The notes: generated by a model not told the origin, from the letters alone. DNA of 10,403 nt from Candidatus Heimdallarchaeota archaeon (GCA_030614005.1 JAUWKS010000094.1:1-10403); one strand, 5' to 3'; counted from the stretch's first letter, positions 3,200 through 4,309 are shown. Numbers and translations are program-made.

Positions 3200-4309
3200 T
3201 TATTTCTTCTTAGTTCTATTTACTTCTTCAGGAACAATCCCTTCTAAAGGTAATGATTGTAAACAAACTGGACACTTACCTTGAGTTTTGATCCATTCTT
3301 GAAGATGAATCAAATGTCCTTTTGCTTCACATAAACTGCAAGAACCAACATCATCACCAAATACAACAGGTAATTTGCAAACAGAACAAATAATTTGCTC
3401 ATTATTACAATCTGGACAAATTTGTTCTTCTCGTTCTAAGGGATGTCCACAATAATAACAATTAGAATATTTATTAGACCCAATCAGAAGTTTGTCATCA
3501 GTTTTTTTAATAAACACATTTTCCAATTGTAAAAATTCACCTGTAATTTTCCCCTCGTCCAATAGCGATTTAATTAATGTAATAATTTCATTTTCGGTAA
3601 TTTTCAATAATTGTGTAAAGCGAGTTATTATTATAGGAATATCTGTGCGAAACTCAGCTACCAATTGTATAATTTCTTTTTTGGTTTGTTCGAGATCTTT
3701 AGGAATTTCTTTATCCATTGAGGTTTTATAATTAATTTCTACTTTTGTGCAGTTTTTAAGAGCAGTTACATCAAGCTCTTTTAACTGATTCAAATTAAGG
3801 TCGAGCTCTTGCAGCTCATTACATGTTTTCAGAGGGGAAAGGTCAATTGAAGATAGCTGATTTAAAGAAAGGTCGAGCTTTTGAAGTTTTGTGCATGTTT
3901 TCAGAGGGGAAAGGTCGATTGAAGTAAGCAGGTTTTCACGAAGATTAACCCACCGCAGCTCTGCGCATGTTTTCAATGGGAACAGATCGATCGAAGCAAG
4001 CTGATTTTCACAAAGGCCGAGTAATTGCAGCTTTGTACATCCTCTCAATGGAGATAAGTCAATTGAAACAAGATGATTAGTATCAAGTGCGAGCACCTGA
4101 AGCTCTGTACATCCTTTCAGTGAGGTAAGATCAATTGAAACAAGCTGATTGGTATGAAGCCAGAGCTTTTGCAGCTTTGTACATTCTATCAGTGAGGATA
4201 AGTCAATTGATGCAAGCTGATGATTTTCAAGATTAAGTTCTTGTAAATTTCTTTTAAATTTTCTACTAAACTTCTCACCATTTGCTTTAATCCCTGTAAT
4301 AATAACCAT
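3200..4309 (-). CDS. Leucine-rich-repeat protein with PCI-like winged helix, zinc ribbon and C-terminal RING-like domain
   Basis: Seven 24-aa LRRs (LxxLxLxxNxLxxIDLxxLxxCxx); 'LIKSLLDEGKITGEF' is PCI-like; CYYC..CPDC; C-x2-C-x12-C-x2-C-x4-H-x2-H-x10-C-x2-C. Confidence 0.88.
   Translation of the reverse strand: MVIITGIKANGEKFSRKFKRNLQELNLENHQLASIDLSSLIECTKLQKLWLHTNQLVSIDLTSLKGCTELQVLALDTNHLVSIDLSPLRGCTKLQLLGLCENQLASIDLFPLKTCAELRWVNLRENLLTSIDLSPLKTCTKLQKLDLSLNQLSSIDLSPLKTCNELQELDLNLNQLKELDVTALKNCTKVEINYKTSMDKEIPKDLEQTKKEIIQLVAEFRTDIPIIITRFTQLLKITENEIITLIKSLLDEGKITGEFLQLENVFIKKTDDKLLIGSNKYSNCYYCGHPLEREEQICPDCNNEQIICSVCKLPVVFGDDVGSCSLCEAKGHLIHLQEWIKTQGKCPVCLQSLPLEGIVPEEVNRTKKK
3743..4246 (-). 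repeat. Coding tandem repeat: 7 x 72 nt LRR units
   Basis: catgttttcagaggggaaaggtc is identical at 3822 and 3894 (72 nt apart); gcagctttgtacat occurs at 4027 and 4171 (144 nt apart). Confidence 0.9.

Follow-up and report, generated by a model that had tools for sequence, protein, structure and literature searches.

The gene at 3200-4309 (minus strand) of a 10,403-nucleotide (nt) contig from Candidatus Heimdallarchaeota archaeon (GCA_030614005.1, JAUWKS010000094.1:1-10403) encodes a protein in which a leucine-rich repeat (LRR) binding domain is joined to a three-zinc tail, and the product is therefore probably a target-recognising ubiquitin ligase, put together by the shuffling of modules that these archaea commonly carry. 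The window analysed was the whole of this contig (C102, 10.4 kb), which belongs to a genome of 3.6 Mb that is 90% complete and whose named homologues point to the Heimdall group of Asgard archaea. On balance, we consider it reasonably probable that the protein is a soluble, modular E3 ubiquitin ligase of the RING type, with an activity that we infer from the features set out below.

The gene is the sole long open reading frame (ORF) at these coordinates and encodes 369 amino acids (aa) plus a stop codon. The choice of start codon is backed by an N-terminus that is conserved in a paralogue on contig C42 of the same genome and in P0007, a related protein from metagenome contigs. A full-length AlphaFold2 model had a mean predicted local distance difference test (pLDDT) score of 88.8, with values of 93-98 in the LRR solenoid, and a model of residues 195-369, the tail, had a mean of 82.6. 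Three rigid bodies were predicted, the LRR domain, a winged helix and a zinc ribbon plus RING unit, joined by floppy linkers at residues 196-202 and 273-279. A first-pass annotation, made from the sequence alone, had called four domains (LRR, PCI-like winged helix, ribbon and RING-like finger), and all four were verified at the coordinates it gave. The layout is as follows.

3200..4309, minus strand: whole gene, in the order LRR, PCI-type winged helix, zinc ribbon, RING
4250..4309, minus strand: N-terminal beta-hairpin cap, residues 1-20 (model strands 2-8 and 13-18, pLDDT 93-94)
3740..4249, minus strand: seven 24-residue LRRs, residues 21-190 (Pfam, repeat register and model)
3506..3694, minus strand: predicted PCI-type winged helix, residues 206-268, with an acidic third helix (model and fold search)
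3407..3460, minus strand: zinc ribbon, C284-x2-C287...C298-x2-C301 (invariant Cys)
3263..3388, minus strand: RING-H2-like C4H2C2 finger with V310, W339 and P347 (ligands, profile and fold)
3203..3253, minus strand: C-terminal extension LPxEGIVPEE...KKK, residues 353-369 (kept in most family members)

The RING-like finger and the ribbon before it were analysed in an alignment of 35 tail sequences from this genome and from metagenomes. All 12 metal ligands, together with W339 and P347, are invariant in this alignment, which is far beyond chance. The eight RING ligands are C308, C311, C324, C327, H332, H335, C346 and C349, with a spacing of C-x2-C-x12-C-x2-C-x4-H-x2-H-x10-C-x2-C that contains HxxHxxxW and CPxC motifs; the RING-like domain proposed earlier at 3263-3388, with ligands C,C,C,C,H,H,C,C and an HxxHxxxW...CPxC pattern, was thus confirmed. 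The CxxC..CxxC ribbon, expected at about 3408-3460, is accounted for by C284, C287, C298 and C301, which map to 3407-3460. Matches of the ribbon to Pfam DZR and Zn_ribbon_3 were weak, and its pLDDT runs on continuously into the RING. In the full-length model, the C-terminal extension rests against the RING through a strand at 358-360, and its final three residues have no ordered structure.

A profile of the family matched RING-H2 ligases in the PDB, with E-values of 8e-6 for RNF126, 9e-5 for RNF24 and 1e-4 for Arkadia, and further matches to EL5, RLIM, RNF38 and Rbx2. The alignment to RNF126 gave a variant ligand set, in which the canonical C-x-H gives way to a CxxC knuckle and a His serves as ligand 6. 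Pfam zf-RING_2 was matched by 31 of the 35 relatives at E ≤ 0.1, the best at 2.5e-6. The model has strands at 321-324 and 330-332 and, after the His pair, a central helix at 333-343 (pLDDT 91-96). It superposed on the Prp19 U-box with Z 7.8 and a root-mean-square deviation (rmsd) of 1.5 Å over 56 residues, on RNF165 with 1.4 Å over 48 alignment columns and on RNF12 with 1.8 Å over 53 columns. As modelled, then, the finger belongs to the RING-H2/U-box fold, with its eight ligands in four RING-like pairs. The first-pass annotation had raised the prospect of a PHD or other non-RING finger; the model superposes on RING-H2 and U-box structures, no PHD finger is among the fold-search matches listed, and Pfam PHD is absent from the 25 families that the relatives match most. 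PHD fingers have C4HC3 ligands, no central helix and a Trp two residues before ligand 7; here the spacing of ligands 3-6 is PHD-like, whereas a His provides ligand 6, ahead of a helix, and the conserved Trp comes after this ligand.

The LRR domain consists of seven units in register over residues 21-188, each of 24 residues, with the consensus LQxLxLxxNQLxSIDLSPLKxCT. The number of repeats agrees with the earlier count and is borne out by Pfam (LRR_8, E 2.7e-21; LRR_4, E 7.6e-15), by the repeat register and by the model, and the encoding DNA shows a 72-nt periodicity (repeat families D1 and D4). The predicted fold matches internalins, lamprey VLR repebodies and the Roco LRR (Foldseek E 6e-11 to 1e-8), and in this respect resembles protein-binding LRRs such as internalins, VLRs and Roco. 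The N-terminal cap is 90% identical to that of the C42 paralogue.

Between the LRRs and the tail, the AlphaFold2 model places a winged helix of the order H-S-H-H-S-S (helix 206-219, strand 225-227, helices 228-235 and 239-251, strands 257-260 and 265-268). A broad representative fold search did not separate PCI winged helices (CSN3, Z 9.8) from PurR, NiaR, BirA and ScpB, and the generic DNA-binding winged helices (these four and Z-alpha) aligned at Z 8.6-9.5. In a search over all chains, CSN2 was best (Z 11.9, rmsd 1.4 Å over 65 residues), the top 26 matches were PCI proteins, with lid subunits and CSN4 following CSN2, and the best non-PCI winged helix reached Z 9.0. Superpositions on PCI winged helices gave an rmsd of 1.3-1.4 Å over 62-66 residues at Z 10-11.9. 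The earlier comparison with a PCI C-terminus therefore holds as a statement about fold, since the all-chain search ranks PCI winged helices first: the modelled winged helix is of the PCI type and is not a full PCI domain. In the model, the winged helix is preceded by a single helix (206-219), without the helical-repeat half of PCI. Pfam PCI (PF01399) matched 9 of the 35 relatives, one of them at 30.3 bits against a cut-off of 22, and gave no match at E ≤ 0.1 to this protein. The third helix carries a net charge of −3 and the whole winged helix −1, and the acidity of the third helix argues against DNA binding.

The ligase proposal had been made conditional on a ubiquitin system in the host, and the genome encodes ubiquitin, E1-like, E2 and JAB genes. 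There are three UQ_con matches for E2s, on contigs C29, C1 and C94 (113, 50 and 48 bits, the best being a 157-aa protein on contig C29), one ubiquitin (50 bits), four ThiF-type E1-like genes, with E1 candidates on C123, C91 and C94, and three genes for JAB proteases. The sole ubiquitin-family gene found (G000:C123:22284-22478; L026:1489-1719, minus strand) encodes 77 residues with a Gly-Gly end; since the protein ends exactly in Gly-Gly, it needs no processing. The gene lies among housekeeping genes, outside any ubiquitin operon. RING-E2 contacts are made by a hydrophobic residue between ligands 1 and 2, a helix Trp and a Pro after ligand 7, and the three hydrophobic contact positions are kept here: V310, between ligands 1 and 2, is conserved in at least 90% of the 35 sequences, and W339 and P347 are the two invariant non-ligand residues. 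A predicted complex of the C29 E2 with the ribbon and RING tail, computed with no E2 alignment and no controls, scored 0.25 against a mark of 0.32 and is counted on neither side of the question of binding.

Archaeal E1/E2/RING cascades work in vitro (PMC5654768; bioRxiv 10.1101/2023.07.25.550441), and the RING E3s so tested are srfp of Caldiarchaeum subterraneum (PMC5654768) and a Helarchaeial RING E3 (bioRxiv 10.1101/2023.07.25.550441). The present host has a ubiquitin/E1/E2 system similar to those reconstituted. The tested E3s are small and encoded in ubiquitin or ESCRT operons, whereas this gene is unlinked and adds an LRR domain and a PCI-type winged helix.

In the mechanism we propose, the LRR solenoid would bind a protein target via its concave face. 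After a flexible linker, the PCI-type winged helix would probably serve in self-association or in docking to a PCI-type protein rather than in DNA binding. After a second flexible linker, the rigid three-zinc unit would recruit a host ubiquitin-charged E2, and ubiquitin would be passed to the LRR-bound target or to the ligase itself. A comparable arrangement is found in the nearest functional analogue, the animal E3 LRSAM1, a xenophagy pattern-recognition ligase composed of an LRR, a coiled coil, SAM and a C-terminal RING (PMC8567218). Both proteins have an N-terminal LRR and a C-terminal RING, and the parts proposed here for the LRR, in target recognition, and for the middle module, in self-association, follow the same logic. 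In the archaeal protein, however, the middle is a PCI-type winged helix, not a coiled coil and SAM, and a ribbon precedes a RING of C4H2C2 pattern. A common origin of the whole proteins is not detectable, and LRSAM1 is an analogue, not a homologue.

The ribbon and RING have their nearest relatives, as a unit, in the tails of eukaryotic coat-like proteins. The family profile across both domains matched MIOS (7e-6), WDR59, WDR24, IFT144/WDR19 and IFT122 (E 7e-6 to 2e-4), and also IFT172. IFT-A and GATOR2 chains ranked first in Foldseek (E 2.6e-5 to 1e-3), the top-ranked human IFT-A chain, 8fh3_C, reached Z 9.8 over 90 residues in VIA, and an ESM Atlas search returned the clusters Zf_2nd_IFT121 and Zf_IFT144_1st (TM 0.47-0.50). 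Because the profile, Foldseek, VIA and ESM Atlas agree, we conclude that the ribbon and RING layout is shared with these tails. As in the C-termini of IFT-A (IFT144/WDR19, IFT122, IFT121) and GATOR2/SEACAT (MIOS, WDR24, WDR59), a ribbon is followed by a RING, with a C4-H2 ligand pattern containing HxxHxxxW and CP. Unlike them, the protein has a 7-repeat LRR for a body, scores under the cut-offs of Pfam zf-RING_16 and zinc_ribbon_16, and belongs to a gene that nothing ties to cilia or nutrient sensing. Since a beta-propeller/alpha-solenoid body is lacking, it is not a GATOR2 or IFT subunit. We found no literature joining Asgard, RING and GATOR2, and only general works on Asgard protocoatomer and RING.

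The tail is widespread on unrelated bodies. The RING occurs ∼20 times in this genome, in ∼13 cases together with the ribbon. The bodies that bear the tail include an FG-GAP propeller with TSP3 repeats, an SBP_bac_5 domain with a hydrophobic segment, a CARDB-like protein and a body of 938 residues for which, the tail aside, Pfam gave nothing at E ≤ 0.01; further bearers are small proteins with a hydrophobic middle that is probably a membrane anchor. An exhaustive profile search of public data retrieved 2,499 cluster representatives with E ≤ 1e-3, of which 615 passed E ≤ 1e-10; their bodies include HEAT, TPR, LVIVD and WD40. The survey of other N-terminal domains sharing the tail, which had been suggested as a check, thus yielded FG-GAP, SBP_bac_5, HEAT, TPR, WD40 and LVIVD. 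A tail carried by many alternative ‘sensor’ domains is the pattern expected of a catalytic handle on varied recognition modules. The tail of this protein is 57-68% identical to those of other Heimdallarchaeota/Asgard proteins, and no dedicated Pfam family covers the ribbon and RING cassette.

Several family members were observed in passing. At G000:C64:7795-9621, an SBP_bac_5 domain is followed by a hydrophobic, probably membrane-spanning segment and then the ribbon and RING, and at G000:C25:2819-5299, the FG-GAP propeller with TSP3 repeats is followed by the same tail; both look like surface sensors with a cytoplasmic ligase handle. Adjacent genes at G000:C24:5654-6208 and 6330-6887 encode proteins of 184 and 185 aa, each with a hydrophobic stretch in the middle, probably an anchor, and a C-terminal RING without a ribbon. 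The member at G000:C67:46865-47356 has an in-frame TAG inside the RING region and is probably a pseudogene; an intact 397-aa member lies ∼6 kb away.

No full-length LRR-RING match was found in 20 related genomes, 10 of them of the same genus, so that the gene is strain-specific on this survey; there, the LRR half and the winged-helix-ribbon-RING half are each found on other proteins, apart from one another. Within the same genome, the C42 paralogue (G000:C42:10653-11756; L013:6001-7104, minus strand) is intact and has the same architecture. P0007 is a distant fusion with the same domain order, 36% identical, and occurs in eight metagenome contigs.

Comparison with the C42 paralogue revealed a tail swap. 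The LRR and winged helix of the two proteins are 78-90% identical, whilst the ribbon and RING are 43-60% identical and belong to different clades. At the DNA level, identity is 78-97% from ∼60-80 nt upstream of the ATG to nt 820 and then 60-70%, and the break falls at the floppy linker ahead of the ribbon. In a tree, the C42 tail groups with the tails of the HEAT-repeat protein P0129 and of the unannotated 397-aa C67 paralogue (support 99/91), apart from the tail studied here. The identity break and the tree placement indicate that the ribbon and RING handle was exchanged by recombination whilst the LRR and winged helix were kept together, and on this sequence evidence the tail behaves as a portable handle swapped at a defined linker.

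Some of the observations weigh against a ligase. This protein scored 13.8-14.9 bits against Pfam zf-RING_2 (PF13639), short of the 27.3 set as gathering cut-off. The PHD-like spacing results from ligand 4, a Cys that stands upstream of the canonical ligand 3. Many active RINGs carry an Arg/Lys linchpin directly after ligand 8; here the position is Leu350, and in the relatives it is L, Q, M, S, D or K, mostly L/Q/M. As not every active RING has the linchpin, its absence makes activity less likely but does not exclude it. The ubiquitin, E1 and E2 genes lie on other contigs amid housekeeping genes, unlinked to the LRR-RING gene, and the nearest relatives of the ribbon and RING, the IFT-A and GATOR2 tails, are mainly assembly modules. 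Because the supporting features stand beside low Pfam scores, a Leu linchpin, assembly-module kin and an unlinked gene, we infer ligase activity rather than assert it, and the same conditional sense applies to the binding of an E2, the transfer of ubiquitin, the nature of the target and any part played against viruses or mobile elements. What the analysis itself shows is the domain anatomy, the invariance of the ligands, the RING fold, the ubiquitin toolkit of the host, the accessory status of the gene and its mosaic origin.

The C-terminal domains of IFT-A and GATOR2 are known mainly for complex assembly, and the protein might likewise be a non-catalytic assembly subunit, whose tail would pair with the tails of other family members and whose winged helix would oligomerise, so that the LRR would be displayed on a scaffold with no ubiquitin transfer. 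The best two-domain matches are indeed the C-terminal domains of MIOS, WDR59, WDR24 and IFT144/IFT122, the ∼13 ribbon and RING paralogues in the genome could be partners, the linchpin Arg is absent, and the winged helix is of the PCI type, known as an oligomerisation element in CSN, the proteasome lid and eIF3. We nevertheless regard this as unlikely, since V310, W339 and P347 vary little or not at all among members of widely differing architecture, the RING part alone matches active RING-H2 ligases as well as GATOR2, the host ubiquitin toolkit is full, and many family members are small or membrane-anchored, without a coat-like body.

Two further alternatives seem to us much weaker. A winged helix plus a zinc ribbon is a common layout of archaeal transcription factors, DNA-binding winged helices do align at Z 8.6-9.5, and the C-x2-C...C-x2-C-x4-H-x2-(H) spacing recalls a PHD finger, so a ligand-sensing regulator could be imagined, with DNA or RNA bound through the winged helix and ribbon, a ligand sensed by the LRR, and a last finger that is structural or a PHD-like reader. 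The ‘recognition’ helix, however, is acidic (net −3, within a winged helix of net −1), the all-chain search places every DNA-binding winged helix 2-3 Z units below those of PCI type, and the RING central helix, the HxxHxxxW motif and the RING/U-box superposition, with no PHD among the matches listed, leave such a regulator with very little probability. It is also highly improbable that the gene is a decaying or non-functional mosaic, a recent product of recombination in a hyper-variable cassette region without a selected function. This would fit the restriction of the full-length form to this genome among 21 genomes searched, the tail swap relative to the C42 paralogue and the broken family member with an in-frame TAG on contig C67, but the reading frame is unbroken, no metal ligand or LRR scaffold position has been lost, the model has a pLDDT of 88.8, a second intact paralogue exists on C42, and a similar fusion, P0007, recurs in eight metagenome contigs. 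A RING-type E3 ligase thus remains our preferred reading.

The gene occupies one block of a repeat-bounded array. A repeat of ∼100 nt separates unrelated blocks of 1-3 genes, with seven copies in the window, all in the same orientation, and 17 sites genome-wide. At 90-100% identity, these copies correspond to the 3′ end of the single 23S rRNA gene (G000:C95, gene end 29052) together with its trailer. The elements around the gene are as follows.

1354-1443, 2203-2301, 3086-3184, 4757-4855, 7995-8056, 8764-8853 and 10352-10392, one orientation: copies of the ∼100-nt repeat
3086..3184, minus strand: downstream bounding repeat, families D2/D3/D5, 95% identical over 41 nt to ∼C95:29049-29089
4757..4855, minus strand: upstream bounding repeat of the same family, 94% identical over 50 nt to the 23S tail region
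4351..4360, minus strand: possible TATA-like box, TTTATTATTA, ∼45 nt upstream of the ATG, read from sequence alone

An integron attC-like reading of the repeats was ruled out by a consensus fold that is weak, with 8 pairs at −2.2 kcal/mol and without compensatory changes, and by the identity to the 23S tail; an integrase was not searched for. Rfam gave nothing at gathering score on the window, and at E ≤ 1 in 1300-4900 only a chance SNORA21 match. A T-rich tract directly follows the stop codon, ahead of the downstream repeat. Upstream, the stretch of ∼450 nt from the gene start to the next repeat (4310-4756) is unusually long for this compact array and holds no supported ORF; small ORFs at 4366-4668 (plus strand) and 4377-4655 (minus strand) were discounted for want of support. 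Similarity to the upstream region of the C42 paralogue stops ∼60-80 nt before the ATG. Elsewhere in the window, at 8877-10289 (plus strand), a repeat-bounded block of its own encodes a 470-aa protein with a hydrophobic N-terminus (probably a membrane helix), a long Asp/Asn/Leu-rich coiled coil and a transglutaminase-like core.

A VapBC pair stands on one side of the LRR-RING gene and a DUF433/DUF5615 pair on the other, with an MNT/HEPN pair next to these. The description of the locus as an accessory block between toxin-antitoxin (TA) modules is therefore upheld, with the repeats as its bounds, the VapBC and DUF433/DUF5615 pairs as its flanks and no full-length copy in the 20 related genomes. 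Around the C42 paralogue lie a PIN_3/SocA-Panacea pair, a PD-(D/E)XK nuclease and a protein with an LVIVD propeller; P0007, on JGI metagenome contig L031:1-5607, has next to it a PARIS-like AriA/AriB pair, with PADLOC E-values of 5.5e-30 and 3.6e-8, as well as a HerA/mad8-like ATPase. Given these TA pairs and flanks, all three LRR-RING genes lie in accessory, conflict-type neighbourhoods, a pattern that consists of three observations, without statistics. It is solely this neighbourhood that hints at an immune role. The possible link to immunity raised in the first-pass annotation draws on the TA modules here and on the PARIS-like pair beside P0007; in PADLOC, no defence-system model matches this protein or P0007.

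Asgard LRR proteins are listed as having no known function, and RING E3s are catalogued as eukaryotic signature proteins (bioRxiv 10.64898/2026.10.28.762692). Asgard archaea are known for expanded sets of RING ligases and of LRR proteins, two kinds of protein that this gene unites in one chain. What is new is the combination of known Asgard modules in one protein, with clear evidence of modular exchange; the tail itself is common. The combination gives rise to the testable hypothesis that at least some Asgard LRRs select targets for ubiquitylation, and it bears on the pre-eukaryotic assembly of substrate-receptor-plus-RING ligases and of the tails of coat-like complexes. Should the accessory, TA-rich setting truly reflect a role in defence, ubiquitin-based immunity would extend to archaea. 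A more specific scenario, which we offer as quite a long shot, is an archaeal pattern-recognition ligase whose LRR would bind a viral or mobile-element protein and whose RING tail would tag that protein, or itself, with ubiquitin for proteasomal removal or signalling. The gene would then be a swappable block in a cassette array bounded by rRNA-tail repeats, its specificity and its handle being exchanged through recombination at the inter-domain linker. Were this true, such a ligase would be a prokaryotic forerunner of ubiquitin-based innate immunity in the style of LRSAM1 and TRIM.

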